Shown here: positions 1,483-21,925 of the stretch, in pieces | Layout: each line of letters begins with the position of its first letter | Position numbering within the stretch: the stretch's first letter is position 1 | Assembly (NCBI GenBank): GCA_045863335.1 | Contig: BTVY01000053.1 | Coordinates: forward strand, 1 to 42,589 | DNA length: 42,589 bases | Reading direction: 5' to 3' | Source of the DNA: Candidatus Hydrogenedentota bacterium | GTDB taxonomy: Bacteria > Hydrogenedentota > Hydrogenedentia > Hydrogenedentales > SLHB01 | Notes under the pieces: generated by a model | What the model was told of the DNA's origin: nothing | Databases searched by the model: none | The model's input: the letters and a program-made list of their open reading frames with translations, nothing else | Made by a program: the position numbers and the translations under genes

Positions 1483-2628
1483 ATGGCACAAATGGACCAC
1501 CAGATCAGTTCAAGTAAGAGCCCACGGAAACAAACAGATGATGCGCCGTTCGCATCCAACGCCTTACGGTTATCGATCCGGCAGTGGATTATCGCGATCG
1601 CGATCCTCGCGCTTGGCTACTTTCTCCTTCCGCGCGCATGGATGCAGGTCGAAGCATTTTCGCCGGATGCGGATTATCGGATTCCCTACGCATTGAGCAA
1701 CGACTACTGGCTCTACGAGCGTTACGCGAGTGAAGTGGCGAAAACGGATCAGATCCCCATCATTGGAGACTCCGTGGTTTGGGGGCAATACGTGGTCGGT
1801 AACGACACGCTGTCTCATTATCTCAACGCGTCTATTGGTAGTGAACGTTTTGCGAACCTCGGCGTAAACGGAAGCCATCCTGTGGCGCTCGCCGGGTTGG
1901 TGCGTCACTACGGCGAAGCGATCCGTGATCGAAAGGTTGTCCTGCACCTGAATCCGCTTTGGCTTAGTTCCCCGCGCCACGATCTCCGCGACGAACGCGC
2001 ACGGCGTTTCAACCACCCGGATCTGGTTCCTCAGTTCTATCCGGAGATCCCAAGTTACAATGCGTCCTTCGCGGATCGGCTTGCCGTGGTTGTGGACCGC
2101 GAATCGTCGTTCCTTTCGTGGACGGCCCACCTGCGGATCGCCTACTACGGCAACCAAGCGGTCCCCGTGTGGACCATGGAGTCGCCCTACGCGAATCCGC
2201 TGGCGCCCTTGACCGGAGATGTACCCGCCGACGGCGACAGCCCGCCAAGCGACCCGGTTCCCTGGGAGGAGCGCGATCTTCGGCTTCAGGATTTCGACTG
2301 GGTTGGGCTAGACGAATCCCTGCAGTGGCGATTCTTCCGCGAAACGGTGGAAACGCTCCAGCGCCGAGGGAACGAGGTATTCGTCATCCTCGGACCCTTC
2401 AACGAGCACATGTTGACGCCAGAAAGCCAGCGCACGTACCGGGAGTTGCGGTCCGGAATGGTCGCGTGGTTCGATTCGCGCGGTCTGCCTTACGCCGCGC
2501 CCGAGCCGCTGCCGAGCGAACTGTACGCCGACGCCAGCCACCCTATCGCGGTGGGGTACGAACGCTTTGCCCAGCAATTGCTCGCGAATCAACCCTTCTA
2601 CTCATTTCTCGAAGCGGTTGACAGATAA
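1483..2628 (+). CDS. Membrane-anchored SGNH-type O-acyltransferase partner (AlgJ/DltD/PatB-like)
   Basis: N-terminal TM helix, GDS block I (IIGDSVVWG), DxxH block V (DASHP); starts 9 nt after the MBOAT gene. Confidence 0.75.
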   Translation: MAQMDHQISSSKSPRKQTDDAPFASNALRLSIRQWIIAIAILALGYFLLPRAWMQVEAFSPDADYRIPYALSNDYWLYERYASEVAKTDQIPIIGDSVVWGQYVVGNDTLSHYLNASIGSERFANLGVNGSHPVALAGLVRHYGEAIRDRKVVLHLNPLWLSSPRHDLRDERARRFNHPDLVPQFYPEIPSYNASFADRLAVVVDRESSFLSWTAHLRIAYYGNQAVPVWTMESPYANPLAPLTGDVPADGDSPPSDPVPWEERDLRLQDFDWVGLDESLQWRFFRETVETLQRRGNEVFVILGPFNEHMLTPESQRTYRELRSGMVAWFDSRGLPYAAPEPLPSELYADASHPIAVGYERFAQQLLANQPFYSFLEAVDR

Positions 2629-2781
2629 ATTCCACTCGACCATACTCTTGTTGGCGGCAGTCCAGGGGTCGCTGCGGGGCCAATCAAGTATCCGGAACGC
2701 GGAAGTATTGTCATTACCGATGCATCCGCTGGCGGTCAGGAGTCTGTCCACCGCGTGACACACTGAGGGGTGGGATCGCGC

Positions 2782-5700
2782 ATGAAGAAGATATTCATCT
2801 CCTATCGGCGAGACGACGCGACGAGCGTTGCGCACATGATCCATGAGTTCATCGCCCGGCGCTTCCGAACGGAGAATGTCTTCTTCGATCTCACCGGCAT
2901 CAAGCCCGGGGATAACTGGCGAGACAGGATCACCGACGCCCTGGAAGAGTGTGGCGTATTTGTCGAGATCATCGGCTCTCAATGGCTCGAGCCCCGAGAT
3001 CAGAAGACAGGCCACCGAGTCCGCCGGCTCGACAACCCTCACGACGTCCTCCGCTTCGAGATTGAGACGGCAATTGCCAAGAGCATCCCCATCATACCTG
3101 TGCTGGTTGACCGCGCGGAGTTTCCCGGAGAAGACGAGGTGCCCGCCTCGATACGCCCGCTATTTAAGGCGCAAGCGCATATTCTCAATCCCGAGCAAGG
3201 TGAATATGAAACCCGAATCGAAAAACTCCTGGTCCGGATAGAGGAATTCGTGGCTCTTGCCCCACACGAGGAACCCCAACGCAGCTTCGACGACCGCATC
3301 GAAACCATTGCCGATTCTCTCCCCACGCCATTGGCGAAGATTGCGGAGTGCGCCTGGTTAGAGCCTGACCGGCGGACGATCCATCTCAATCGCCTGTTCA
3401 TGGAAGGACTTCGTCTACTCTCCCTGGTGGCATTGCACGACACGATCGCCAGCGGATGCTTTGGAAGCGGCCAAGCGAACCCCAACGCGTCACTCCACCT
3501 TATATCGCGGGATATGACGCTGAATGATTGGTACACGATTCTACGCAATTCGATTCAGGACAAACGCGCCGACACGGTCACACTTATCGCACCCGAGATT
3601 CAGGATTGGGCTGAAAATTCCGAAATCGCCGCGCTGATCGAAGATATGCTCAAACCGCGCGGCGCGTGGCGGTATGACGACGAGCCCGGCCGCTATACGA
3701 GCATGGAATCGCCCCGGGTTCTGGAAAGCAATATCCTCAAGCTGTTCGGAGATTTTCTGTTCTTCAAACGATACATTTTCGTTTCTGTGACCAGCCCTCC
3801 GAGCAGCATGGACAATACCTTCTCTTGCCGGATCCTGAGAGGGTTTGACCTCACGAACAAGGAGGTTAGTCTGGTCGTTTCCGATGAAGCAGACTGGAAT
3901 CCCCGGGCCCAGGAACTGTATCTGCTGGACATCGACGAACGGCAATGCCTATCCCTGGAACCCGCCCTCTGGTTCGGACTTGGCTATGAATCGGATCAGG
4001 TCGGCGGACTCTGCAAATTGCACTTGGAAGAAGGTGAAGCGCACATCCTCCACGTGGAGGCGTTTCGTTCGCACGACAGACTGCTCTTGCTTGATTCTCA
4101 GTGGCAGCAACGTGTCGGCAATGCGGCGGTCCCGAGGTTGCCCGGCAATCCGCCGATGATCTGTCGACCGGCCAATCTGGGCAAAGCACTCAGTGGCTGG
4201 CTTGGGTCCGATCGGGTCGCGGAGGCGTGGGGGATTCACGCGGCGGGCCGCAAAAAAGTCGCGATTATCGAAGATGCTTTCGATGAAACGGCCTGGCAGC
4301 AACTCAAGGCGATTGCAAATCCGCCACGGAACCTCGATAGCATCGCCGATAAGTTCCGCTTGGAGAACCCTCCTTTCCGGGTTGGAGAACTGGTTGACAT
4401 TTACCGTGGCGTGGAGAAAGGGCAGGAATCGATTTCCAGCCTCGCGTTTCACATCCTGCGGCCCGAAGTGCAGGACGATAAAGAGGTCACGCGGTGGTTT
4501 GTCGATCGGTACAACAACTGGCGACGTGTTTCCCACAAGAGCGTCAACAGTCCATACGCGGCAAGCGCGGTGGATGACCGTGACACTCCGCCGTTTATCA
4601 TTACGGAATTCGTCGTCGGCGGTCGATCGTTGGAAACGCGTATCCAGCGGGAAGGCGAGGTCGACCGGGAATGCCTTATTCGCGTCATACGGGAAGCCAT
4701 TCGATTGTGCACGGCCGCCCACCGCAATGATGTCTACATGCTGACGCTCCCCCCCCGCCATTTTCTAATTGACGACCGAGGTGACTATCGGATCACCGGA
4801 TTCGAAACGGCCGTGTCGGGCGATGCGGATCTGCGCGCGATCGACTGGGACCGGTTCAGTAAGGACTCACGACGAATGGCCCCCGAAATCGACCGCGGGG
4901 CGACGCGTCCAACGGTCGCGATGGACGTATTCGCCATCGGGGTGCTGCTGCAACAGCTCCGCGATCGATCCCCAAAGGCGATTCCATTTCCGGCGCCGGA
5001 AGACTCGGCCGAGCTGCTGGACGTGCTCGCATTTCACTGTCTCGCAACGGACGTTAACCTTCGGTTCCGCTCGATGGAACAAATTGAACGATTCGTATCG
5101 GAGTACCTGTGCGACGGGGCAACCAACGTTCCGCGAACCGTCGAAGTTCCAGCCGGACCTATTCGCGCGAACGGAAATGACCACTCCGAAGCGACGGTTG
5201 CTGGCTTCAGAATGGGCGCGTATCCCGTCACCAACTTCGAATACCAGCACTTCTGGATGACCACCGGCCATCGGCCTCCCTGCAGTGGCGATAACTTCCG
5301 TCTCCGTGGTCCGTGGTGCCCCGTTATCGGTGTTGACTTCGCCGATGCCCAGGCCTACTGCCAGTGGCTTTCAGATAGAACGTCTCTACGCTGGCGATTG
5401 CCGTCGGAGGCGGAATGGGTTCGAGCCGCGGTTCTGGACGGAGTTTCCGACTATCCCTGGGGCAACGAGGACCCGTTGAATCCGGCTGGCAAGTCCGAAG
5501 GGGCAATTGCGGACCCGATCGTTGCCGAACCCCGAGCCAATTTTGGATCGCGTTTCCGGGGCCCCACCCCGGTCGGCTCGTTTGTCTCCGGCAAATCCGC
5601 CGGAGGTTGTTATGACATGGGCGGCAACGTTTGGGAATGGTCCACCAATTGTCTCAGGGACGGCGCGCCATTCCGTGTGATCAAGGGCGGCGCTTATGGG

Positions 5701-5802
5701 TTTGGCAAGGAGAGTCTGACGGTGCGAGCGAGGAACCGGGCGCTCGCTGCGAATCGTTCGGGGCATTTGGGATTCAGAGTACTGTGCGAGGGGACGGATT
5801 AA
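2782..5802 (+). CDS. Multidomain protein: TIR + helical region + pseudokinase + FGE-sulfatase (SUMF1/FGS) domain
   Basis: TIR: IFISYRRDD...VFFD...PGDNW...RFEIETA. Kinase-fold remnants: FIITEFV, RMAPE, MDVFAIG. FGS: YPVTNFEY, AQAYCQWL, RLPSEAEW, YPWG, GCYDMGGNVWEW, RVIKGG, GFRV. ATG at 2782 preferred over GTG at 2770. Confidence 0.88.
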   Translation: MKKIFISYRRDDATSVAHMIHEFIARRFRTENVFFDLTGIKPGDNWRDRITDALEECGVFVEIIGSQWLEPRDQKTGHRVRRLDNPHDVLRFEIETAIAKSIPIIPVLVDRAEFPGEDEVPASIRPLFKAQAHILNPEQGEYETRIEKLLVRIEEFVALAPHEEPQRSFDDRIETIADSLPTPLAKIAECAWLEPDRRTIHLNRLFMEGLRLLSLVALHDTIASGCFGSGQANPNASLHLISRDMTLNDWYTILRNSIQDKRADTVTLIAPEIQDWAENSEIAALIEDMLKPRGAWRYDDEPGRYTSMESPRVLESNILKLFGDFLFFKRYIFVSVTSPPSSMDNTFSCRILRGFDLTNKEVSLVVSDEADWNPRAQELYLLDIDERQCLSLEPALWFGLGYESDQVGGLCKLHLEEGEAHILHVEAFRSHDRLLLLDSQWQQRVGNAAVPRLPGNPPMICRPANLGKALSGWLGSDRVAEAWGIHAAGRKKVAIIEDAFDETAWQQLKAIANPPRNLDSIADKFRLENPPFRVGELVDIYRGVEKGQESISSLAFHILRPEVQDDKEVTRWFVDRYNNWRRVSHKSVNSPYAASAVDDRDTPPFIITEFVVGGRSLETRIQREGEVDRECLIRVIREAIRLCTAAHRNDVYMLTLPPRHFLIDDRGDYRITGFETAVSGDADLRAIDWDRFSKDSRRMAPEIDRGATRPTVAMDVFAIGVLLQQLRDRSPKAIPFPAPEDSAELLDVLAFHCLATDVNLRFRSMEQIERFVSEYLCDGATNVPRTVEVPAGPIRANGNDHSEATVAGFRMGAYPVTNFEYQHFWMTTGHRPPCSGDNFRLRGPWCPVIGVDFADAQAYCQWLSDRTSLRWRLPSEAEWVRAAVLDGVSDYPWGNEDPLNPAGKSEGAIADPIVAEPRANFGSRFRGPTPVGSFVSGKSAGGCYDMGGNVWEWSTNCLRDGAPFRVIKGGAYGFGKESLTVRARNRALAANRSGHLGFRVLCEGTD

Positions 5803-5804
5803 CG

Positions 5805-6758
5805 ATGAACACGACGGAATCGATGCAGAAGTTCAGCCAGAAAACGGACGTAATCGGCGAGAAGCTCGTATACGTGAGCCAACCGTATTACGCACCCGAG
5901 TCGCCCTTCGAGGGACGCACGGAAGAGTTGAACCTCATCACGGCGGCCTGGATGAGGCGCAAGGGCCGTCCCCCGCTTTCGCCGCTTCTGCTGGGCGAAC
6001 CGGGCGTAGGCAAGAACCGGCTCGTGTACGAACTCGCGCGACGGACCGGCAAAGACCTCTACATCTTTCAGGGCCACGAAGACGTGACGGCCGAGGACCT
6101 TGCCTGCGCCGTGCGGTTCAGCGACGACGCGACGCGCAAGATGGACTACGTGGTTTCGCCGCTCGTGACCGCCATGCGTACCGGCGCCATCTATTTCATT
6201 GACGAAATCGCCAAAATCCGGCCGCGGGCTCTGGCGCTTCTGGTAAGTGTTCTCGATGAACGACAATATATCGATTCTACGCTTTTGGGTGAACGGGTCT
6301 ACGCCCACCCCGGATTCCGGTTTATCGCGGCTACCAACACCGCGGACCTCGAAGGACAAAGTATGCCGGAGTTCATCCGGTCCCGGCTGCGGCCAATTAT
6401 CAAGGTAGGGTATCCGCCCCGGGACGAAGTAAACCGGATTCTGAAAGCGCAGCACGCGCGGCTCCAAACGGATGGCGACCATTTACTCGATTATTTCTGG
6501 GTGTTGTGGGAACGTAGTGGCATGACGAACCCGCCCACGCCACGTGACGCTATCTATACTTTCGATCTCGCGCTCAGCCTGGCGGATTTCAACGCCATGG
6601 GACTGCGCGAAGCCATAATGCATCCCGGCGCCGACCACATTCGCCTTGAGAGCGCGGTTACGAGCGATGGCCTGGCCAAGGAACATGTCGAACAGGCATT
6701 CAACGAGCTGTTCCGCCGCAGCGATGGCGCGCAAGAAACTGCCGATACCCATGGTTGA
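5805..6758 (+). CDS. MoxR/CbbQ/NorQ-like AAA+ ATPase (AAA_5)
   Basis: Walker A GEPGVGKN, Walker B YFIDEI, HPGFRFIAATN sensor-1, SR arginine finger; ATG 2 nt after the upstream stop. Confidence 0.9.
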   Translation: MNTTESMQKFSQKTDVIGEKLVYVSQPYYAPESPFEGRTEELNLITAAWMRRKGRPPLSPLLLGEPGVGKNRLVYELARRTGKDLYIFQGHEDVTAEDLACAVRFSDDATRKMDYVVSPLVTAMRTGAIYFIDEIAKIRPRALALLVSVLDERQYIDSTLLGERVYAHPGFRFIAATNTADLEGQSMPEFIRSRLRPIIKVGYPPRDEVNRILKAQHARLQTDGDHLLDYFWVLWERSGMTNPPTPRDAIYTFDLALSLADFNAMGLREAIMHPGADHIRLESAVTSDGLAKEHVEQAFNELFRRSDGAQETADTHG

Positions 6759-9093
6759 TTCGCTCAACGCGTTGCGAATGCTCGTTGGGGAAAGCGAGCT
6801 GCTGGCGGTGCCGTCGGTACATTTCCGTACGGCATTCGCCGAACATGTAAACCGCGCTTGCGCCACGCAGAACGTCGACGCCGTCGCCATCGAACTCGGC
6901 CCTGGAACAGCGTATGCCCTCGAGGGCGCATTGAAAGATCTCGGAGTTGCCCCCCGCCGCCGAATCGAATTACCCGTTATGCTGGGGCTGGCCCGGCGCA
7001 ACGTTCGGATCAGACCCTCCGCGCAGAAAGCCGCCCGGCTACTTCAGGAAACGACCGGAAGGGAGCTTCACGAACTTGAGCCCTCTATCCTGAAGGAGGT
7101 TCTCGGGTACTCCTCCATGTCCGTTCTATTTCTCTCGGCGACGGATTCGATCATCGAGGGCGCCCGATGCTCGCTTGAACTGGGCGTGCCGCTCTACGGC
7201 GTTGATCTCGATGACACCGCCCCGCGTATTCCCGGTGAAACGAACATACAGGATCCCGCCCGCGCCAGCGGGAATCTGCCCCCCTTCGTGGCGCGAAACG
7301 CAAGCTTCAGCGAGCGCCAGCGCGACGATGAAATCGATACCCGCCGGGAGATCGCGATGGCGGCCCGGCTCAAGACGATTTTAAGCCGGCACAAACGGGT
7401 TCTGTTCGTGTGCGGTCTGGCGCATTGGATTCGGATCAAGCGCCTCTTGGCAGACGACGCGGTTCGCCCGGCTCCCTTGCCGGAGCCCTCGCATCAGGCC
7501 CTCGACTTTCAACAGGTTCTGGTTCACCCACTCGTGGCCATCCGGTATCTCGACATCTTCCCCGAGTGTGTCGCCCAGTACGAGAAGTCCCGCACCACGG
7601 CGGACAACCCGCTGACGAGCACCCATGAACCATTGGATCTTCATCAGATTTTCATGGCCAAGATGCGCGACGCCTACCGCGCCTACTTCCGAGACGAAGA
7701 TTCCGGCGATCAACTGCATCGCATAGCGGAGGATGTCGAAGCCTGCGGCGACTTCCGGGGGCTGCTGGAAAACCTTACAATCCTGAAGCAGATCGAGACC
7801 CCGGATTTATTCACCATCATGTCTGCCGCTCAGACCGTCATGAGTGAATCCTTCTGCGAGACCCTTGCCGACACGTTCCTCACCTTTATCAAATGGGCGA
7901 CTCCCAAGGACTATCCGTCCACGCCCATTCTGGCGCCCGTTCCAAACCAGCCCCACGACACCGATATGCGCGTCGTGATTATTGATGAGGAGGGCAACCG
8001 GAGCGGGTATTTCTACCTGAATGCGAAACCCGGTCCTTCGTCGTTCAAAGTTCAGGTAAAGATTCCATGGGACTGGGACGCCGAGCCGGAATCGCAAGCA
8101 CGCGAGGCACGCGACGGCGGGAAGAGCAACTGGTATCCGAAAGTGGATATGAGCGTGGCGCTGCACCTGCGTGCCGTCGAAGTTGCCCGGCAGAACGAGA
8201 AGAAGCCTGCGAGCATCCCCTTCGAGGGCAGCCTCATGGAGGGTATTGATGTGCGGGCGACCATCCGGGCGCACAGCACCGGTCTGGAGCAAGTGTACGT
8301 GCGGGAATCGCCCCGTGTCGTCTCTTCGGGGCCAACAACCGAGTTGGACGGATTTCCCGTCGTGATGTTGTCCAGTCTTGAAGACCCGCCGGGCGCTCGG
8401 TGGGGGTTCTACGGCGATTCACTGTCGAGCTACAACAAATACGTACGCGATCAGGAACGGCTCGAACGGGCAAAACGGGAGATGGGACGCAGCCTGCTCA
8501 CCGACATTGCGTACACGAAAAAGCCAGAGCGTTCGGACTTGTCCACGAAGGACTGCGAGGTGGAATCCATTTCCCTTCTCGGTAAAGTTGCCTTTCATCC
8601 CGGGTGTTTCACCATACGGCAGACGGCCTGGTGGGCGGAAGACAGCGATTACCGGCGAAACCCCATTCTGAATTACAGCTCCTTAGGCGGGCAAATGCCG
8701 GAGGACATGAAAGAGTACTACCGAAAGAAGGGCATCGAGCTTAGCGGGCAGCCCTGGCACACCGCCATGCTATTGACCGCGGTCCCCTTCGCCAAAACGA
8801 GTATGACGGTCGTAGCTCCGGACGGCTACTCGATCCCGTCGATTGTGTACCGCGAAGCCACACGCCGCAAGGCGGTAATCCGCGCCGTGCCCTTGTCCTA
8901 TTTTTCGCGCGAGGCCTTGCGCGAAATTTCCTCGCTGTTGCGCGTACCGACTGTGGGCCGAACGAAAGAAGACGACCTGCCGATATACCCCGCGCACATC
9001 ATCCGCAAATTGGGCGATCCGTATGTGAACCGGCACCTCGTGCCCGAGTGGGCGCGCAACTATGGAGTGAAGGAGCACGCGCTCCATGACTGA
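6751..9093 (+). CDS. Large protein with N-terminal TraB/TIKI/DUF5682(YehM)-like domain and uncharacterised C-terminus
   Basis: VPSVH, DAVAIELG, VPLYGVDL, RREIAMAARL and VLFVCGLAHW motifs; later EGIDVRATIRAH. Start overlaps the MoxR stop by 8 nt (alternative ATG at 6724). Confidence 0.7.
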   Translation: MVDSLNALRMLVGESELLAVPSVHFRTAFAEHVNRACATQNVDAVAIELGPGTAYALEGALKDLGVAPRRRIELPVMLGLARRNVRIRPSAQKAARLLQETTGRELHELEPSILKEVLGYSSMSVLFLSATDSIIEGARCSLELGVPLYGVDLDDTAPRIPGETNIQDPARASGNLPPFVARNASFSERQRDDEIDTRREIAMAARLKTILSRHKRVLFVCGLAHWIRIKRLLADDAVRPAPLPEPSHQALDFQQVLVHPLVAIRYLDIFPECVAQYEKSRTTADNPLTSTHEPLDLHQIFMAKMRDAYRAYFRDEDSGDQLHRIAEDVEACGDFRGLLENLTILKQIETPDLFTIMSAAQTVMSESFCETLADTFLTFIKWATPKDYPSTPILAPVPNQPHDTDMRVVIIDEEGNRSGYFYLNAKPGPSSFKVQVKIPWDWDAEPESQAREARDGGKSNWYPKVDMSVALHLRAVEVARQNEKKPASIPFEGSLMEGIDVRATIRAHSTGLEQVYVRESPRVVSSGPTTELDGFPVVMLSSLEDPPGARWGFYGDSLSSYNKYVRDQERLERAKREMGRSLLTDIAYTKKPERSDLSTKDCEVESISLLGKVAFHPGCFTIRQTAWWAEDSDYRRNPILNYSSLGGQMPEDMKEYYRKKGIELSGQPWHTAMLLTAVPFAKTSMTVVAPDGYSIPSIVYREATRRKAVIRAVPLSYFSREALREISSLLRVPTVGRTKEDDLPIYPAHIIRKLGDPYVNRHLVPEWARNYGVKEHALHD

Positions 9094-10069
9094 CCCGACC
9101 TCCGATCTCGCGGGAATTCTGAAACAACTGCAAGAGGCACTAGGACAGCCCAAATCGGGACGCTTCGATGCGCTAGCCAAAATACCGCGAGACTTGGTCT
9201 ACGACGATCAGGACTTGAACGGGGTCCTCTACGGCGAAGCTGACGTCACGCTTTCCCCGGCAAGCATCTTCTCGGGCACGTCCGAACTGTTTCCCCACAA
9301 CGACGATGCAACGCCCTTGGACGTCGTCTCAAGGGGCGCTGACCTTCTGGATAGCGGCGTGCCGCTTTCGAACGGCGACTTGACGCGGCTGTGCAACTTC
9401 GCCCGGCGCTGCTTGCCCGTATGGCCGCATCCTCCTAAGGAACCCATTTCTCCCCGGGTTGGAGAATTGCTCGATCGGCTCCAAACGATCGCGGGCGAAC
9501 GCGCCAACGATGATCTCCGGCAGGAAGTATGCCAGGTACGTTGGGAGTACCACGAGTGGCGGGGCGAGTTTGACCTGGCCCGCGACGCGCTGGAAACGGT
9601 CATGCAAGTTTACATGCGCAGAAACGAAGAAACCCAATACGCGCGCGCGCTGAACAACTACGCCTACCAGTACCAGCGTGAAGGAAAATGGGCCGACGCC
9701 GCCCGGGAATACGAACGGGCCGCCACTATTTTCAAACGAGTTCGTAACGACATCGATTACTCGAACTCCCAACAGAACTACTGGGAATGCCGCTTCGAAA
9801 TGGACGGACTGAAAAGCGTGGAATTCATGAAACCAGAGGTTCAGCGCCTCGTCATGGCGATGCACAATCGCAAGGACTGGAGGCAACGCAAAGGATTTCT
9901 CATCCTGGCCAGGATTGCGGAATCAGAATCCAATCTTCCGGAAGCAATCAAGTTCGCCCAGTTGGCCGTGGCCGTCGACAAGGCGGCGAACACCATCTAC
10001 CTGGATCAGGATACCGCCTTCTTAGAGGCCCTCGAGAAGAAGCTGCAAAGCGACCCGTCACGAAACTGA
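9086..10069 (+). CDS. TPR-like alpha-helical repeat protein
   Basis: TPR-type segments ARALNNYAYQYQREGKWADAAREYERAATIF and LARIAESESNLPEAIKFAQLA; AAGGAG RBS; 8-nt overlap with the upstream stop. Confidence 0.75.
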   Translation: MTDPTSDLAGILKQLQEALGQPKSGRFDALAKIPRDLVYDDQDLNGVLYGEADVTLSPASIFSGTSELFPHNDDATPLDVVSRGADLLDSGVPLSNGDLTRLCNFARRCLPVWPHPPKEPISPRVGELLDRLQTIAGERANDDLRQEVCQVRWEYHEWRGEFDLARDALETVMQVYMRRNEETQYARALNNYAYQYQREGKWADAAREYERAATIFKRVRNDIDYSNSQQNYWECRFEMDGLKSVEFMKPEVQRLVMAMHNRKDWRQRKGFLILARIAESESNLPEAIKFAQLAVAVDKAANTIYLDQDTAFLEALEKKLQSDPSRN

Positions 10070-10091
10070 TCCGATGTCCGAGGAATCAGGC

Positions 10092-11027
10092 CTACCGGTC
10101 CGCGTGGCGGCGGTCGACGAACACGACACTCTTGCCGTTCGGCTTCGCCATCTGACGCGTTTGCGCCAGCACTTCAAACATTTTCTTGGCAGACTTGAAA
10201 TGGCGGTGCTGGGTATGCGCTACTCCGATAGACAGTGCCATCAACGGGTACCTGGCCTCTTTGCCTTTTCGGTCAGTGGCGACCACGAATCCTTGCTGCA
10301 TTTCTTTCGCGGTATAGAGCTGGCCGACGGTGCTGTCGAAGGTCTGCATGAGCGTGCTGCAGAAGCGCTCGTAGTCTCCCAGATTCACCATGACCACAAA
10401 ATGCTCTCCGCCGAGGTGGGCGACGAAACACTCGTAGAGTCCGATGTTGCGTACAAGCTTCACCAGCGTCTGCGACATGAACTCCAGCGCGCGTTTTTGG
10501 CCCTGTTGGCCGTACGCGGCGCAATAGGGTTTGAACCCAACGATGTCGATGTAACAAGCGGCGATGGCCATGCCGCGGGCGAGCTTGTGGTTGATCTCGC
10601 GTTTGATGGCTTCCGTGCCGGGGAGGTTCGTTGTGGGATTTCGCCGGTCAATGGATTCCTGAAGCGCGTTCAGCCCAGCAAGTTTCTCGATCAAGTGATC
10701 GAGTTTAAAAGGCTTGGCGAGGAAATCATCCGCGCCCTGTTCGAGTCCGTGCTGAACCTCGGGCTCCTCGCCGAGAGCCGTCAGAATCAGGATGCCGATC
10801 TTGTAGAGTTCCGGGTCCTTCCGAATGCGGCGGCAGATCTGGTATCCGGTCACCCCCGGAAGCATGATGTCGAGCACGGCCATCTCTGGCTTAAACTCCT
10901 TCGCCATCTCGAACGCGCCGTCGCCGGTATGGATCACGGCAACCTCGTGTCCTTCGTCCAGCAGCTTGGTACGCAGGAGCTCCGCCAAATCGACATCATC
11001 GTCCACTATCAAGATTTTGCTCATCAA
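10092..11027 (-). CDS. Response regulator receiver + degenerate GGDEF domain protein
   Basis: KILIVDDD, LDIMLP (phospho-Asp), ADDFLAKPF; then NPTTNLPG, YIDIVGFKPY and HLGGEHF in place of GG(D/E)EF. Confidence 0.88.
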   Translation of the reverse strand: MMSKILIVDDDVDLAELLRTKLLDEGHEVAVIHTGDGAFEMAKEFKPEMAVLDIMLPGVTGYQICRRIRKDPELYKIGILILTALGEEPEVQHGLEQGADDFLAKPFKLDHLIEKLAGLNALQESIDRRNPTTNLPGTEAIKREINHKLARGMAIAACYIDIVGFKPYCAAYGQQGQKRALEFMSQTLVKLVRNIGLYECFVAHLGGEHFVVMVNLGDYERFCSTLMQTFDSTVGQLYTAKEMQQGFVVATDRKGKEARYPLMALSIGVAHTQHRHFKSAKKMFEVLAQTRQMAKPNGKSVVFVDRRHADR

Positions 11028-11080: not shown

Positions 11081-11123
11081 ACCATTATCATAGGTAATGG
11101 TTAACGCCGGAAACATTATACCA
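11081..11123 (-). promoter_or_regulatory. Extended -10 (TGGTATAAT) plus a downstream 7-7-7 palindrome, upstream of the response regulator
   Basis: Minus strand TGgTATAAT at 11123-11115; ACCATTA-N7-TAATGGT at 11081-11101. Confidence 0.5.
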
Positions 11124-11165
11124 CAAACACTTACGAAGGACAGAGACCGGTGGGCCACAAAAACG

Positions 11166-11921
11166 TCAAACCCTGTCACTTTCCGCCCCCTCGTTAATAC
11201 CAGCGAGCGTATCCTCAGGTGGGGTCTCTTTTTCTTGGGCTTGTTCAACGGACTCAAATTGGGCTAAGAGTTTATGATACTGGTCGACGCCCCTTACAAC
11301 GGAAAGGCCGGGTAACGTCTCGCCCGTTGCTCGATTTGGCATGTACGCGGAAACGACGCCGACAATCGTCGTATGCTTGCTTATTTCGCTGTCGTCTAGC
11401 TCCATCCCATGCATGACGCTCCAAATTGCCGGGCCTCCACTTACTCCATTGATTGCCACGCCGTCAACTAAATACGCACTCTCTTCCTGAACCCAGGCGC
11501 TTATGCTACCGGAAAAGAAACACAAATTCGCGGACGGAATTGCTGGATAACCTAGCCACGCAATGGTGTTGCCGATCTTGAGATACTTGTCTTTCGGAGC
11601 CAGAGGTAGTGGCTCTGTCGGAAAAGGGATATCATTTCCATCTATCAGAATCGCAGCGGTATCTCGCTGAGAATCAAGAAAAACCGCCCTATCTGTGCTT
11701 TGAACCAGTATCGTTGTGTTTGAACTCTCATGCACAATCCTGATCGGCTCCAGCCAATCATGAGCGTGATCAATCACGTGTGCTGCGGTTGCAATGCCGC
11801 AAATTCGCTTGTCTGTATTGTTCGAGACAAGGAAACCTGTACCTGACCCATGGGGTGTGAAAATCCGAACAACATGCGGCTGAACCTGCTCTACAATCGA
11901 AGACCAACTCACCGATGCCAT
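11166..11921 (-). CDS. Trypsin-like serine protease (no signal peptide)
   Basis: GSGTGF, TAAHV (His), DTA (Asp), GYP, NGVSGGP (Ser); GAGGAGG RBS. Confidence 0.88.
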   Translation of the reverse strand: MASVSWSSIVEQVQPHVVRIFTPHGSGTGFLVSNNTDKRICGIATAAHVIDHAHDWLEPIRIVHESSNTTILVQSTDRAVFLDSQRDTAAILIDGNDIPFPTEPLPLAPKDKYLKIGNTIAWLGYPAIPSANLCFFSGSISAWVQEESAYLVDGVAINGVSGGPAIWSVMHGMELDDSEISKHTTIVGVVSAYMPNRATGETLPGLSVVRGVDQYHKLLAQFESVEQAQEKETPPEDTLAGINEGAESDRV

Positions 11922-11936
11922 TGAAGCTGCCTCCTC

Positions 11937-13013
11937 TTATTCTTCAGATTTGTCGTTCACCGGGCATTCCAGTTCTTCATTCGAACTCGACAGAAACAGC
12001 ACTGCGCTAGCAGTCATGTTAAGAACGTATTCAGCGACGTGCCTCGGAGCCGGATGACCTGGAGCCTCTTGACTGTGAGCGTGCGGATTTGTGAGTGTGG
12101 GAACGCCGCTTTCAAGCAGGGTTCTAAGTCCTGTCATTTGGCTTTGAAGCCCGGCTGGAATGAGGCCGTTCTTCAAACAAATGTCGATAAGCAGTTTCGC
12201 GGTGCCCCGTTTCTCGCTGAACTCCCAGTTTCGCTGACGGCATATAGCTTTCATGATGCTCTCGAAGCACTTTCGCGCCTCCACAAGAGAATCGCCATGC
12301 TCACCGTTCCGGTAGTGCCGGTGTGCCTTCAGAAAATGGGCGTTGGCACTGCCGAATTTTGAATCTGAGAGGACCATGAAAGCGGGCCGGACTATCTCGT
12401 TGTGTGCAAATTGAGAATCAACCCTCACGACCAAACCACTCTCGAACAGGTATCCTACTCCGCGTTGGCGGAAACACTGATTCAATTCTCGGATTGCAGT
12501 ATCCGCTCTTTTCGGTCCGTCAGCTTCGACTCGCCGAAGATCACCATCGATGAGCCGCAACGCCGCTTCGATCCCCCAGACTAGAATATCGATGTCGGAC
12601 TCGTTCAAGAGAAAGTGCCGAAGTTCCTCTCGCATGTTGACAGAGTCACCGTTACTCTTGGGGTCGCACAGATTAAACCTACCCAAAACGCGGCGGATTT
12701 CTTGCACTAGCTCCACCCACCATAAGCGAACTTCCGGGACCGGTGAATTTCGCTTTGCTCCGAAATGCGTTCCGCCGTAGACCCCACCCCCGAAACTGCC
12801 ACCGCCGACACCACTCGCTCCGAGCGGACTCGGTCCGAACACAGCCGGCCCAAACGCCATAGCTCCGGAAATATAGTTGCCTAACGCTGAATCTATGACA
12901 AGAAAAATCTGCACTCGGAGCTCTTTCGGAAGCTCATTGTAGACGTACACTTCAGGAAGGTCACCACGCTCTCGTCGCCGACGCAAATGATACGGTTCAT
13001 ACTCATCGGTCAC
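11937..13013 (-). CDS. Abortive-infection-like protein (STM4504/CBY_0614-like; AbiJ-type N-terminus + Abi_C/HEPN-like C-terminus)
   Basis: RRRERGDLPEVYVYNELPKELRVQI, AIRELNQCFRQRGVGY, DSQFAHNEIVRPA, KCFESIMKAIC, LESGVPT..H; GTG start at 13013 with GGAGGAG 7 nt upstream. Confidence 0.75.
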   Translation of the reverse strand: MTDEYEPYHLRRRRERGDLPEVYVYNELPKELRVQIFLVIDSALGNYISGAMAFGPAVFGPSPLGASGVGGGSFGGGVYGGTHFGAKRNSPVPEVRLWWVELVQEIRRVLGRFNLCDPKSNGDSVNMREELRHFLLNESDIDILVWGIEAALRLIDGDLRRVEADGPKRADTAIRELNQCFRQRGVGYLFESGLVVRVDSQFAHNEIVRPAFMVLSDSKFGSANAHFLKAHRHYRNGEHGDSLVEARKCFESIMKAICRQRNWEFSEKRGTAKLLIDICLKNGLIPAGLQSQMTGLRTLLESGVPTLTNPHAHSQEAPGHPAPRHVAEYVLNMTASAVLFLSSSNEELECPVNDKSEE

Positions 13014-13306
13014 ACGCACGCTCCTCCCAACACCCGATGAATTCTCTAATTGTTGGAGTAATGTTCTATAGAGTTGCAAACGGCCTTGGCATTAAGATTT
13101 CCACAACTCCCGCACCATAAAGACTAAGTGAATCGACCGTCGTTCCCGCGCTTACACCATTATCATAGTACATAAAGCGCCGAATCAGCAAGAAATGTCG
13201 CGCGCGCGAAGCTGGTCGCAATTCGGCAAGCGTTTGTAAAGTGTGAAGTTAGCGCCGCAACGGAGTTGGGGCGCGGTACGTTAGCTCCGGAATCCTGTCA
13301 ATTGAT

Positions 13307-14048: not shown

Positions 14049-14741
14049 ATGATGTGCAGATTCGCAGCGGACAAGTTCGCCTGGATGGCAGTGGCATTGC
14101 TCGTGGTCGGTTTGGGTTGCGAGGACAGTTCACTTCCCGCGCCGCCACCGTCGGCCGGCGACCCGGCGGTCACTGAAGAAGCGATAACGGCCGAAATCGA
14201 GAAGGGGCTCCAGCCGCTGTACGATTTCGTTCCGATCCTGACGCGGCAGACGCCGGTTCCGCCCGCATTCGCTCAGACCATGCGCGAACACTTGCGGCAG
14301 GCGAACGAGAAGTACCACGGCACGCCCGAAGGCAAGGAAGCGCTCCGCAATGCGGTGCGTCATCTCGAAGACGTGCTGGTGGTGGCGCGCGAAAAGCAGA
14401 ACGGCCTGGCCGTCCTGTTGATCTGTGAACTGATTCGCATCGTGGAGCCCAACAATTCCCGGGTCGCGCGGTACGAAGAGTGGGCGACCATCGAAAAGAA
14501 TCGTCCCGTCGTCATGTTGCGCGGCTGGTTTGTGGATGAGGAAAAGGATCCGCCCGTTATCAACGCATTTATCGAGGTCTTCCTCCCGGAAACCGGAGAA
14601 GTCGAACACTTGCGGGCGCGCGAAGGCGAGGAGTTTCTGGGCCTGAAGTTTCGGAAGATTTTGGGGAAGCGGCGCGGGATGCTGTTGGAGTACCTGAAGA
14701 CCGGTGATCTGTTTGAGGTATACCTTCGTTCATGGCCATGA
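14049..14741 (+). CDS. Lipoprotein, paralog of the upstream gene
   Basis: Lipobox-like GLGC; VFLPETGEVEHLRAREGEEFLGL aligns with IYLPTTGQTEHEQVREGEEFHGL; start codon uncertain. Confidence 0.7.
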   Translation: MMCRFAADKFAWMAVALLVVGLGCEDSSLPAPPPSAGDPAVTEEAITAEIEKGLQPLYDFVPILTRQTPVPPAFAQTMREHLRQANEKYHGTPEGKEALRNAVRHLEDVLVVAREKQNGLAVLLICELIRIVEPNNSRVARYEEWATIEKNRPVVMLRGWFVDEEKDPPVINAFIEVFLPETGEVEHLRAREGEEFLGLKFRKILGKRRGMLLEYLKTGDLFEVYLRSWP

Positions 14742-16435
14742 GTTCTGACGTGAAATATCGCTTGCTGGTGGCCCTGTGCATCGTGGCGGCTGCCTTCATC
14801 GCCTACGCAAATTCTTTCCACAATGGCTTTGTCTGGGACGACGCCTCGTCGGTATTGCTCCATGAAGATGTGAAGAATGCGCGCCTCGCCGATCTCTTCA
14901 CCAAAGACCAGCACGCCTATGGCCGGGGCCAGGGCAATTTCTACCGGCCGCTGGTCTCCTTGTCGTTTGCGATCGACTACGCGTTGACGACTCGCGGACA
15001 GCAACCGCCGCTCAACCAATTTGGCGTGCCGGATATCGGCACGTTCTATTTCCATTTCACCAACACTGCTTGGCACGCCCTCGCGGGAGTCTTTCTGTTC
15101 CTGATTCTCGCCCGGCTAGGCGCGCCGCGGTTGGTTCAGGTCTGCGTGCCGCTTCTTTACGTCGTACATCCGCTGCACACGGAGGCCGTCACGTACATCA
15201 GCGGACGCGCCGATCCCATGGCCGCCGCCTTTGGATTTGCCGGTTTGCTATTCGCGGTGCGTTCCACAGAGGGCGCGCGCAATCTGCTGAACGCCGCTGC
15301 CGGAACGCTCTGTTTCGCGCTGGCGTTGCTCTGCAAGGAATCGGCGCTCATTTTCCCGTTCCTTGTCTTGGTCATCCTTCTTCTAGTTCGCAAAGGGACC
15401 AGCGCTGAGAGTTCCGACGAGCCGCGCCGTTCGCCCATTTCTGTGCTGGCCGGGGCCGGATTGGTACTCGTCGTGTATGGCATGTTGCGGGCAACGGTCC
15501 TTCATTTCGCTTCGGACTCCACAACCGGCGACCGCGGGCTCGGAGCGCGGCTCCTGGAGACGCTTCAGGCCTTCGCGCTTTACGTGAAACTCATCTTCGT
15601 TCCCACGAACCTCCACATGGAACGAACCCTGAACGGTGTTGGCGCCTTGACCGCGATCGTGGGCGCCCTTTTGTTGATCGTCTGTCTTGGAGCGGGGTTC
15701 TGGGCATACCGGGTCGGCAGGCCGCGACTGGCCGCGGCGGTTTGCTGGTTTCTGCTTACCTGGATTCCCATCTCGGGGATCTTCCCCCTCAACGCGCCCA
15801 TGGCCGAACACTGGATGTACGTACCGCTCGCCGGTTTCCTGTGGGCGTTCTTCGAGATCCTTGCTCCGGGGCTTCAAGGCCGCGGACCTCGCACCGTCCT
15901 GGCGGCAGCGACCTACGCCGCCGCCCTCTGTCTCGTTGCCCTGACGGCATCCCGAAACCTGGACTGGCGCAGTGACGAAACGCTATACCGTGCCACATTG
16001 GAAAAGAACCCCGAGTCTATTCGCGTGACCTACAATCTCGCGGTAACCTACGAAGACCTGCTTGAGAACCTTCCTGGCGCGCGGCGGAACTACGAACGGG
16101 TTATCGCGCTCTACAAGGAGAAGAAGGCGGCCGAAGACAGCCCCGGCCCGGAACGGTTCTGGGATGACGAGCTGGAATCTCACCTCTCCCTGGGACGCAT
16201 CTTCATGGAACAGCAGCGATTCGATCGGGCCGCGCAGCACTTCGCCACGTTGTTGCAGGTTGGCCCAACCGAGTCTACGCGTCCGCTCCTTCACACCGCT
16301 GCCATGGGGATGGTGCAGAGCGCGCTCGCCATGGGCCGCACGGCAGAAGCAAAACAGATCGTCGAACAATTGCGGGACAAATTCCCCGAGATTTCGAACC
16401 AACTGAACTCGCTGGTGCAAGGGTTACCGGCGTGA
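14738..16435 (+). CDS. TMTC-like GT-C membrane glycosyltransferase with C-terminal TPRs
   Basis: FVWDD, FYRPL, VHPLHTEAVTYISGRAD, ALLCKE, AEHWMYVP, RNLDWRSDETLY, TPR tail; ATGA overlap with the upstream gene. Confidence 0.85.
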   Translation: MSSDVKYRLLVALCIVAAAFIAYANSFHNGFVWDDASSVLLHEDVKNARLADLFTKDQHAYGRGQGNFYRPLVSLSFAIDYALTTRGQQPPLNQFGVPDIGTFYFHFTNTAWHALAGVFLFLILARLGAPRLVQVCVPLLYVVHPLHTEAVTYISGRADPMAAAFGFAGLLFAVRSTEGARNLLNAAAGTLCFALALLCKESALIFPFLVLVILLLVRKGTSAESSDEPRRSPISVLAGAGLVLVVYGMLRATVLHFASDSTTGDRGLGARLLETLQAFALYVKLIFVPTNLHMERTLNGVGALTAIVGALLLIVCLGAGFWAYRVGRPRLAAAVCWFLLTWIPISGIFPLNAPMAEHWMYVPLAGFLWAFFEILAPGLQGRGPRTVLAAATYAAALCLVALTASRNLDWRSDETLYRATLEKNPESIRVTYNLAVTYEDLLENLPGARRNYERVIALYKEKKAAEDSPGPERFWDDELESHLSLGRIFMEQQRFDRAAQHFATLLQVGPTESTRPLLHTAAMGMVQSALAMGRTAEAKQIVEQLRDKFPEISNQLNSLVQGLPA

Positions 16436-19185: not shown

Positions 19186-20478
19186 TTAGACCATGTTGGA
19201 AACGACGTGGATGGCGTGGCGGGGATTGCGGATGGCGCGCTTGACCATCTCGGGCCAGGTGTAGTTGCGGAATGCCTGGCGCGCGCTGAGCTTGAGGAAG
19301 AGCTTCTTCTGAAGTTCCGGCGACATGCTCTTGTTGCAATTGAAGGTATCGGGATCGCCCGCGGTGAAGCGGTCCCACGTAATGCCGGCCTTGAGAATCT
19401 CGTCCTTGAACTCGTCAAACAAGGCCGTGCCGGGGTACGGCGTCAGGTAGTGGATCGATGCGAAATCGATCTTTGCCTCCCGGATGAACTTCCGTGTCTG
19501 TTCGACGTCGTCGACGGTCTCGCCGGGTGTGCCGATAATGAAACAGCCGCGAACGCGAAGTCCGGCTTCATGTATCCTGCGCGCGGCTTCCATGTTCGCC
19601 TCGACGGAAGAATGCTTGACCATACGGTCCAGCATGCGCTGACTGCCGCTCTCAAATCCGATCGTCACCTGCACGCAACCCGCGCGCTTCATCAACTCGA
19701 GCACGTCCGGACGGATGCGGCGCGCGTGAATCTGGCACTCCCATTTCAGATGATGGAGATCGGCTTGTATCATCGCTTCGCAGATGGCACGGAAGCGGTC
19801 AATATCCGTCGCCATCAACTCGTCGAAGAAGGCAATGCTCTCGATGTGGTGACGATCCACAAGGTAACGAATCTCCTCCACGACGCGCTCGGGTCCGTGG
19901 AAGCGCAGCTTCGTCTCGCGCTTGGAATTGATGCAGTAATTGCAAACAAACGGACAGCCCCGGCTCGTGATGATTCCCAGGGTACGGTACGAGAAACCTG
20001 CAATCTCTTCCCCGGCGGCGGCGTACTGATCCAGGTCGAGTTGATCGCGTCGCGGTTCCGGAATGTCATCCAGCACCGGCGGCACAGCGGGCTCGATGAT
20101 GCCCTCCAGTTTGCCCGACGTAATGGCCTGCGGGAAGGTCCATTCCGCCTCGCCACGAATCACGCAGTCACTGTGTTCGAGGGCCTCTTCCGGCATGGCC
20201 GTCGGATGTGCGCCGCCCATGACCACCGTAAGCCCGCGCTCCTTGCGGATGCGGTCGGCGAGTTCATAGGCGCGCAAGGCGTACATGGTCATAAAGGAAA
20301 TGCCGACAATGTCCGGACGGAACTCGTCGAGTCCTGCCTCGACATCCTGACCTGCGATTTCATCGATAATCTTCGTCTGATGTCCGTCGGCTTGCAGGGT
20401 GGCAGATAAATAGGCGAGCCCGAGGTTTTCCTTTTTCAAGGACCGTGGGACGCTCGGGTTGATGAGTGCGATCCGCAT
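19186..20478 (-). CDS. B12-binding radical SAM protein
   Basis: MRIALINPS, LGLAYL, GGAHPT, VIRGEAE, SRGCPFVCNYC, GFESG; ATGA overlap with the upstream gene fixes the start at 20478. Confidence 0.9.
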   Translation of the reverse strand: MRIALINPSVPRSLKKENLGLAYLSATLQADGHQTKIIDEIAGQDVEAGLDEFRPDIVGISFMTMYALRAYELADRIRKERGLTVVMGGAHPTAMPEEALEHSDCVIRGEAEWTFPQAITSGKLEGIIEPAVPPVLDDIPEPRRDQLDLDQYAAAGEEIAGFSYRTLGIITSRGCPFVCNYCINSKRETKLRFHGPERVVEEIRYLVDRHHIESIAFFDELMATDIDRFRAICEAMIQADLHHLKWECQIHARRIRPDVLELMKRAGCVQVTIGFESGSQRMLDRMVKHSSVEANMEAARRIHEAGLRVRGCFIIGTPGETVDDVEQTRKFIREAKIDFASIHYLTPYPGTALFDEFKDEILKAGITWDRFTAGDPDTFNCNKSMSPELQKKLFLKLSARQAFRNYTWPEMVKRAIRNPRHAIHVVSNMV

Positions 20479-21884: not shown

Positions 21885-21925
21885 AGGCACGTCCCGGCAA
21901 AGACCACATCGGTGAAGAAGGAACG

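Follow-up and report, generated by a model that had tools for sequence, protein, structure and literature searches.

We describe a four-gene cassette (genes A to D) in a 42,589-nt contig of a Candidatus Hydrogenedentota bacterium (assembly GCA_045863335.1, contig BTVY01000053.1), hereafter called the window. The cassette encodes a TIR-pseudokinase-FGS protein (A), a MoxR-clade AAA+ ATPase (B), a protein with a TraB/TIKI-like N-terminal domain (C) and a TPR protein (D). It is fairly probable that these genes constitute an accessory, horizontally spread conflict or immune system in which B, C and D gate the TIR output of A. Such a system would most likely be directed against phages, be of the abortive-infection type and be undescribed so far, and we class it as a variant within the MoxR-centred conflict systems, one whose core of MoxR ATPase, TraB/TIKI-like protein and TPR protein has no name and lacks a vWA component.

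The four genes form a tight operon, with a 2-nt gap between A and B (5803-5804, according to both the listing of open reading frames (ORFs) and a reading of the junction) and 8-nt overlaps between B and C (6751-6758) and between C and D (9086-9093). This arrangement is more than a chance juxtaposition, given that the adjacency of B and C recurs in related loci. A word-indexed search gave 51 clusters of the C family, and a hidden Markov model search among 1.84e9 proteins gave 295, 640 and 856 representatives, defined at the 50%-identity level, at E<=1e-30, 1e-10 and 1e-3, respectively. Taking one genome per species yielded 73 loci, of which 50 carry close, full-family members (L002-L051) and 23 carry distant relatives (C', 600-750 aa). 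The close loci are labelled as belonging to Hydrogenedentota, Planctomycetota, Acidobacteriota, Nitrospirota, Armatimonadota, Bacteroidales, Verrucomicrobiota, Omnitrophota and Leptospira, and others come from Delta- and Gammaproteobacteria, including isolates of Thiocapsa and Lamprocystis. The close C family is thus found in many phyla and yet is rare, and the B-C-D trio is patchily distributed.

In 48 of the 48 close loci whose upstream sequence exceeds 400 nt, B lies directly 5' of C, and by estimate no more than 50 nt separate the two genes in 44 of 49 close loci. A D-like TPR gene abuts C in 36 of the 45 loci for which 900 nt or more of downstream sequence is available, a count that takes in one locus where this gene abuts B (L019) and one where it is on the opposite strand (L043). 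Consistent with this, BLAST clustering identified two D-type clusters directly 3' of C, in 19 and 18 loci. Because both B-C and D adjacency recur across loci, the conserved unit is B-C-D and not all four genes; the initial annotation of the window, made from the sequence alone, had proposed the four-gene set as the unit, but an A-like gene is present in one clade only. Among the distant loci, a B' ATPase is encoded upstream of C' in 17 of 21 and D was not found.

Several related loci show particular arrangements. A second C paralogue is found 1.2 kb downstream of the first in L008 (6496-8076) and two D-type TPR genes in L028 (6460-7419), and these may be tandem or duplicated systems. In a Bacteroidales locus (L025) a 281-aa ORF with a match to the FtsZ C-terminal domain lies between B and C (9101-9943), and in three distant loci (L057, L058 and L060) the B'/C' pair directly follows genes for a UvrD helicase and a PD-(D/E)XK nuclease, an AddAB-like arrangement. 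C' is also present in two contigs of Promethearchaeia metagenome-assembled genomes (L061 and L066, Asgard archaeal records).

The accessory status of the cassette is apparent from the genus itself. C is present in two of five other genomes of the same genus and in none of 35 genomes from other genera of the order. In three congeners that lack C (G001, G002 and G004, completeness 81-93%), the sequences matching the window up to 2607 and from 10096 onwards are only 190-240 bp apart, and therefore the segment 2608-10095 is a 7.5-kb insertion or deletion. No direct or inverted repeats and no target-site duplication were detected at its borders. The cassette was found in 20 public sequencing runs of 13 studies, mostly of sludge, bioreactor and wastewater metagenomes. 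Locus L002 (Hydrogenedentota) is 98% identical to the window and L003, recorded as an uncultured Nitrospiraceae, is 90% identical over 10.4 kb, flanks included; as their phylum labels differ, one of these two bins is probably mislabelled.

The genes beside the conserved core vary. A-like genes, defined by the middle region, the pseudokinase and the FGS domain, occur only in the window, in L003, L004, L005, L006 and L014 and, truncated, in L008. In L004, L005, L006 and L014 the N-terminal TIR domain is replaced by DUF4062, and no more than about 20 nt separate the end of the A-like gene from B in L005, L006 and L014. Among 301 sampled Planctomycetota genomes, the middle region plus pseudokinase architecture is full-length in only one, where it adjoins B-C-D, and the other 14 genomes match only the kinase part of A. 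Elsewhere the core is accompanied by same-strand TIR_2 genes (L011, L014, L024, L047 and L048, and further away in L041), a ThsB-type TIR gene (L017), SIR2 with a free FGS (L024), DUF4062-NACHT-TPR proteins (L019 and L035), nSTAND1-FGS (L043), NB-ARC-WD40 (L049) or trypsin (L037). Bacteroidales-type loci have a set of their own, comprising a 405-513-aa protein of no known family, a WD40 protein of about 423 aa and small downstream genes, including one for a metallophosphoesterase. No vWA gene was detected among the same-strand neighbours scanned in the related loci. In L035, NADAR and NUDIX genes lie directly 5' of B (7475-8231), after the genes for a DUF1598 protein and the DUF4062-NACHT-TPR protein. 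Since NADAR and NUDIX genes process ADP-ribose, their presence hints at NAD-derived chemistry in this variant.

Protein A combines the features of a sensor and an effector (Table 1). Its TIR_2 match exceeds the Pfam threshold, and in a full-length but weak alignment to the TIR domain of SARM1/TIR-1 (E 0.13) Glu93 falls on the glutamate of the 'HKE' motif, which is presumably the catalytic residue in those proteins. The domain also gives partial matches to the Thoeris ThcB4 and ThsB models of PADLOC and NCBIfam; against the NCBIfam TIR-type models the score is 39.8 bits, far under the 220-bit cut-off, so that the likeness is at the domain level only. The kinase region matches Pkinase at residues 601-730 with 25.1 bits, under the Pfam gathering cut-off of 31.7, as well as the PD-T4-6 and MAD6 kinase models of PADLOC and NCBIfam. 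All seven aligned A-like proteins (that of the window and six homologues) have other residues in place of the HRD and DFG aspartates, and therefore the label pseudokinase is correct. An ESM Atlas search with the middle region (residues 125-530) returned no usable match.

Protein B matches AAA_5 with 92 bits and AAA_3 with 28.2 bits in Pfam, and it belongs to the MoxR clade, given that its closest solved relatives are the AAA part of midasin (E 1e-31), CbbQ and NorQ. The Walker A motif reads GEPGVGKN (K70 and N71; window 6012-6017) and Walker B comprises D133-E134. Of 47 close-family B proteins, 45, that of the window included, have asparagine in place of the usual Mg2+-binding Ser/Thr (GxPGxGKN), and GKT is present in the other two (L031 and L039) and in each of the 17 distant relatives of B; the DE of Walker B is invariant across the B proteins compared.

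Protein C, the signature of the family, has no match in Pfam, NCBIfam or PADLOC at E<=0.01, and a comparison of its profile with PDB chains by sequence gave a chance-level match only (E 0.98). It was modelled with AlphaFold on 30 homologues, with a predicted local distance difference test (pLDDT) value of 85.5 and a predicted template-modelling (pTM) score of 0.69. Two fold searches over 48,161 chains placed members of the EreA/ChaN/TIKI/TraB superfamily in the top ranks for residues 1-295, with Z values that are moderate. The best match is a Tetrahymena complex-IV subunit (Z 9.7-10.5, 184-192 residues aligned), followed by HopBA1 (5t09, Z 7.5-7.7), ChaN (2g5g, Z 7.5), the C1 region of Pasteurella toxin (PMT; Z 6.2-6.5), EreC (Z 6.0-6.5), 3b55/2rad/2qgm (Z 5.5-6.1) and RRSP (Z 5.3). 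The family model PF01963 (TraB_PrgY_gumN) reaches 15.7 bits (E 0.014, residues 190-234 only), under its 26.8-bit threshold. Among the structural neighbours in the ESM Atlas there are a DUF5682 cluster (template-modelling score 0.44) and a cluster named 'conjugal transfer protein TraB', which serve as leads only.

The DUF5682 lead agrees with profile comparisons by hhalign, in which the N-domain of C matched a 20-sequence DUF5682 profile with a probability of 94.6% (E 6.8e-8, 178 columns) and full-length C matched it with 91.7%. The match is significant only with this profile, a single sequence of the E. coli DUF5682 protein YehM giving 2%. The Pfam model PF18934 (DUF5682, gathering score 26 bits) does not match C at E<=1 and gives the distant C' relatives 11-20 bits only, against 330.8 bits for YehM itself. 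Residues H24, E48, R199, E200 (E/D), G222 and H225 are kept across 38 close, 19 distant and 20 DUF5682 sequences. This conservation of H, E, RE and GxxH, residues ascribed to metal binding in TIKI, suggests that the N-domain of C may retain an active site.

The remainder of C is less familiar. For the helical bundle at residues 296-379, the rows retrieved at Z 4.3-5.9 were of AAA-lid, RbcX and histone-fold type and were taken to reflect a common arrangement of helices. Folded alone, residues 455-780 were modelled confidently (pLDDT 90.2, pTM 0.84), with no chain at Z>=5 among the 48,161 (best Z 3.4) and no Foldseek match at E<=0.001 among 350,542 chains (E 0.11). Weak rows for ASKHA kinases, Pelota, Argonaute/RNase-H-like proteins and a vWA-type A-domain (Z 2.5) were discarded as unusable. 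The C-terminal profile matched the vWA profile of YehP with a probability of 1.8%, though absence from the fold lists does not exclude a vWA-like fold, and it showed no similarity to DUF5682 (hhalign probability 0.2%). From the model, this half may have a new fold or a new arrangement of domains.

Protein D matches TPR_12 with 32.2 bits (E 1.2e-7) in Pfam, in addition to weak matches to kinesin-light-chain TPRs. A complex prediction of B, D and residues 455-780 of C, made with custom alignments, scored 0.00 and is uninformative on binding either way.

With these assignments, most of the initial annotation of the genes stands. The coordinates agree with its four co-directional genes and their spacing; the Pfam matches and the missing aspartates bear out its TIR, pseudokinase and FGS calls for A; the AAA_5 score together with midasin, CbbQ and NorQ as nearest solved relatives upholds the MoxR call for B; and the TPR_12 match does the same for D. 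Its TraB/TIKI-like call for C is supported by the fold matches to ChaN, EreC, PMT-C1, RRSP and HopBA1 and by the hhalign match to DUF5682. It had also noted that no vWA gene is visible, and none was found by Pfam in A-D or in the 12 neighbouring proteins of the window that were scanned.

Table 1. Coordinates of the cassette, its genes and their domains in the window.
Feature	Position	Strand	Description
Accessory cassette	2608..10095	.	Insertion/deletion unit, four genes; congener flanks ~190-240 bp apart
Promoter-like site	2618..2646	+	TTGACA-17-CATACT, upstream of gene A; weak, 10/12 matches
Gene A	2782..5802	+	ATG start, 1006 aa; TIR, helical/unknown middle, pseudokinase, FGS; sensor/effector
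A, TIR domain	2791..3132	+	Residues 4-117; TIR_2 40.4 bits (cut-off 28), E 4.8e-10; putative catalytic Glu93
A, kinase-like domain	4339..5121	+	Residues ~520-780; without catalytic Asp residues
A, FGE-sulfatase (FGS) domain	5131..5781	+	C-type-lectin-like; residues 784-1000; PF03781 119.9 bits, E 2e-34
Gene B	5805..6758	+	ATG start, 317 aa; MoxR-clade AAA+ ATPase
Gene C	6751..9093	+	ATG start, 780 aa; signature protein of the family
C, N-terminal domain	6751..7635	+	TraB/TIKI/ChaN/EreA fold; residues 1-295; H24, E48, D132, E136, R199, E200, H225
C, C-terminal alpha/beta half	8113..9090	+	Residues 455-780; without solved relative
Gene D	9086..10069	+	ATG start, 327 aa; TPR protein

Promoter-like sites are not above chance in the region, with 5 against 3.0 ± 1.8 in shuffled sequences, and a scan for terminators was likewise not above shuffles. 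Contigs from one RNA library span the end of A, all of B and the start of C (5691-7217) as well as the C/D junction (8993-9609), and they cover 29 of 30 bins, the bin 10022-10318 being without cover in run X5. As the library may contain carried-over DNA, these contigs hint only weakly at co-transcription. Upstream of the cassette there are genes for an MBOAT protein (97-1473) and for a 381-aa protein with no Pfam match (1483-2628), and downstream a convergent gene encoding a response-regulator receiver/GGDEF protein (10092-11027, minus strand). A kilobase from the cassette, the block 11094-13155 contains two minus-strand genes, for a trypsin-like peptidase and an AbiJ_NTD4/DUF7014 protein (11166-11921 and 11937-13079), with lower G+C (0.50-0.54) and weak PADLOC matches to the protease parts of RT-Protease_XI and LmuA and to PDC-S32. 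L002, L003 and G004 all lack this block, which is therefore a second, independent indel. Two adjacent B12-binding radical-SAM genes (19186-21890, minus strand) and a gene for a GtrII-like glucosyltransferase with fused TPR repeats (14732-16435, plus strand) are seemingly unrelated to the cassette.

Among described systems, the MoxR conflict systems of Kaur et al. (eLife, 2020 and 2021) provide the natural comparison. All of them consist of a MoxR-vWA pair plus a third component, the ternary types being VMAP, iSTAND, FtsH, beta-propeller, iSTAND2 and TERNS3, and the pair is proposed to set a threshold (PMC7159879, PMC8195603). As portrayed there, they resemble the cassette in having a MoxR-clade AAA+ protein as presumed threshold-setting chaperone, in being multi-gene operons with a system-specific extra component, in the use of TIR, inactive kinase, FGS, TPR and WD40 modules, and in the swapping of effectors between related loci and a patchy distribution. 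Protein A also fits their domain syntax, in which inactive kinases occur and FGS is always the C-terminal-most domain (PMC7159879). The initial annotation had inferred a conflict-like setting and suggested effector swapping as a check, and both agree with the accessory, patchily distributed cassette, with the exchange of TIR for DUF4062 on A and with the TIR, SIR2, STAND, FGS and WD40 genes of other clades. In contrast to the MoxR-vWA systems, the cassette lacks a gene for a vWA co-chaperone, and no resemblance to a vWA domain was detected in C; the invariant partner of its MoxR ATPase is a TraB/TIKI-fold protein; its effector modules are on a separate protein, where those systems have them on the vWA component; and B, complete by eye, carries a GKN Walker A. 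Neither 'TIKI' nor 'TraB' occurs in the main text of PMC7159879 or PMC8195603, and neither term is found in PMC12839542.

The closest relative of the core is the yeh cluster, which is uncharacterised. In E. coli K-12 yehL (AAA_5), yehM (DUF5682), yehP (VWA_CoxE) and yehQ (SWIM) follow one another, together with a DUF4132 gene, and in a Myxococcota sample DUF5682 is present in 20 of 121 genomes; in each of the 23 distinct places examined, its gene is flanked by one for a YehL-like ATPase on one side and one for a YehP-like vWA protein on the other. As in B-C, an AAA_5 MoxR ATPase is encoded directly 5' of a protein of about 750 aa with a homologous N-domain, and YehM has the same H...E...RE...GxxH residues as C; B and YehL share 28% identity (E 4e-10). 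From these profile and residue comparisons we regard the N-domain of C as a remote DUF5682 homologue, and the system of the window either descends from the YehL-YehM pair or parallels it. The two differ in that the DUF5682 clusters have a vWA gene downstream, whereas the window family has a TPR gene downstream of C, and in that C misses the PF18934 model and its C-terminal half is unlike that of YehM. Only the window family was seen to have TIR and STAND partners, the DUF5682 loci being viewed with flanks of 1.5 kb. Because the yehL-yehM pair was already known, a partnership between MoxR and a TraB-like protein is not new; what is new is its vWA-less, TPR- and TIR-linked form.

The cassette also differs from the other groups to which its proteins are related. 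With the TraB/TIKI superfamily, C shares the fold of residues 1-295 and the paired His/Glu residues, whereas it falls under the PF01963 threshold, is fused to a helical bundle and a C-terminal half of 320 aa, and is always paired with a MoxR ATPase. With TIR immunity proteins (Thoeris ThsB, TIR-STAND/Avs-like proteins and SARM1-like NADases), A shares a TIR_2 domain with a conserved glutamate, but here the TIR is fused to a pseudokinase-FGS unit and linked to the MoxR/TraB-like/TPR core, and none of the scanned proteins could be recognised as a ThsA-type partner. PADLOC-DB v2.0.0 (2023) gave no full system match, as had been expected from the initial annotation, A having domain-level matches only (PD-T4-6 kinase and ThsB TIR), B a single weak AAA match, and C, D, YehL and YehM none. 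The earlier statement that this composition was not recognised as a named system is thus supported by PADLOC, with the qualification that the MoxR/TraB-like pairing is familiar from yehL-yehM, and that B-C is a divergent counterpart of this known, uncharacterised MoxR-DUF5682 pair had been overlooked. Literature searches found no papers on DUF5682, only incidental mentions of yehL/M/P/Q and, among the papers listed, nothing relevant on TIKI, TraB, GumN or PrgY with MoxR or in anti-phage function; among the matches listed for the MoxR defence literature from 2021 onward, this set of genes is not described in any title or in the opening of any abstract.

It is reasonable to suppose that A would be held inactive until an invader-derived cue is recognised, its C-terminal FGS and dead kinase acting as ligand- or protein-recognition modules. 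B-C-D could set the threshold, as proposed for the MoxR-vWA pair in the known ternary systems, with B contributing ATP-driven remodelling to the gating step, C possibly cleaving a peptide segment through its putative TraB/TIKI-type hydrolase domain, and D serving as a peptide-binding scaffold or adaptor. The SARM1-like TIR domains of A might then associate, leading to NAD+ depletion or to a nucleotide signal. The initial annotation had suggested a comparable scheme, in which remodelling or cleavage by MoxR and the putative peptidase would set the TIR effector free, and which is likewise hypothetical.

Other explanations of the locus have to be considered. It seems unlikely that A is a self-contained, single-protein gene for TIR defence or signalling that only happens to occupy the same integration hotspot as an unrelated B-C-D set, even though A-like genes are confined to one clade of the C family, most B-C-D loci have none and the locus behaves as a hotspot with a second indel nearby. 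A and B are 2 nt apart in the window and about 20 nt or less apart in L005, L006 and L014, the block 2608-10095 was gained or lost whole, the architecture of A is found in one of 301 Planctomycetota genomes and there adjoins B-C-D, and the N-terminus was swapped between TIR and DUF4062 while the link to B-C-D stayed. The patchy phyletic pattern, the empty sites in congeners and the rarity of the family (295 representatives at E<=1e-30 among 1.84e9 proteins) argue against a housekeeping-type chaperone or maturation module in the manner of CbbQ/NorQ or yehLMPQ, with A as a signalling protein rather than an immune effector. The core is, moreover, repeatedly found beside TIR, SIR2, STAND and DUF4062 genes, and no conserved gene for a cofactor enzyme or substrate accompanies it. 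We therefore consider such a module improbable, while acknowledging that midasin, CbbQ and NorQ are the nearest solved relatives of B, that several loci have metabolic neighbours and that the YehL-DUF5682-vWA triplet, present in 23 of 23 Myxococcota places and in E. coli K-12, has no known defence role.

The TraB/PrgY pheromone analogy brings up a peptide-signal or quorum-type system, in which C would process a secreted or intracellular peptide and D would bind it. The placement of the C N-domain in the TraB/PrgY/GumN-TIKI superfamily and the ESM Atlas cluster named after TraB are compatible with it, and TPR proteins do bind peptides. Nevertheless we hold this to be very unlikely, because the loci have no conserved gene for a small peptide, a transporter or a membrane anchor, the domain content of all four proteins points to the cytoplasm, the partners are immune-type domains, and none of the 19 pattern matches in IMG/VR viral contigs is a relative of C.

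The preferred interpretation, a conflict system whose B-C-D core gates A, also has points to its disadvantage. A-like genes stand beside the core in only about seven of 50 loci, in roughly half of the loci the scanned ORFs include nothing recognisable as an effector, and the neighbours comprise some housekeeping genes, for example those for leucyl-tRNA synthetase (L022) and UxuA (L018). The ORFs of related loci came from a simple longest-ORF script and not from a gene finder, with similarity assessed by phmmer and jackhmmer. The GKN Walker A of B may mean altered or weak ATPase activity; the fold matches of C are only of moderate strength (Z 5.3-10.5); and a peptidase activity of C is not implied by its fold, because the TraB/TIKI fold also houses non-proteolytic members such as ChaN, which binds haem, and EreC, an esterase, according to the titles of their structure records. 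The mutual binding of A-D is putative, and no phage-resistance phenotype is known for the C family or for yehLMPQ, for which the literature is incidental only.

A more far-reaching proposal, which we put forward tentatively and hold to be possible rather than probable, is that B-C-D represents a new class of MoxR-dependent immune core, in which the fusion of a TraB/TIKI hydrolase to a novel fold, together with a TPR adaptor, replaces the vWA co-chaperone. The ATPase and the hydrolase would then license interchangeable death effectors (TIR, DUF4062, SIR2 or STAND-linked) proteolytically or conformationally, and by homology the yehLMPQ/DUF5682 clusters, both in E. coli and in numerous other bacteria, would be conflict systems too.

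The composition of the cassette is real, rare, mobile, unannotated and linked to an orphan cluster of E. coli, and its function is inferred. Two of its features are of use in any case: the C-terminal half of C, confidently modelled yet unmatched, is a target for structural work, and the natural exchange of TIR for DUF4062 on a pseudokinase-FGS scaffold offers a ready comparison of sensor-output coupling. If our interpretation is true, a rare yet widely transferred immune core, with about 300 close and about 850 total representatives, would be added to prokaryotic immunity, the principle of the MoxR chaperone as a threshold switch would reach beyond the vWA partnership, the TraB/TIKI/ChaN fold would acquire its first role in prokaryotic immunity, and the DUF5682/YehM proteins of E. 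coli K-12, which have no known role, would become open to functional study.

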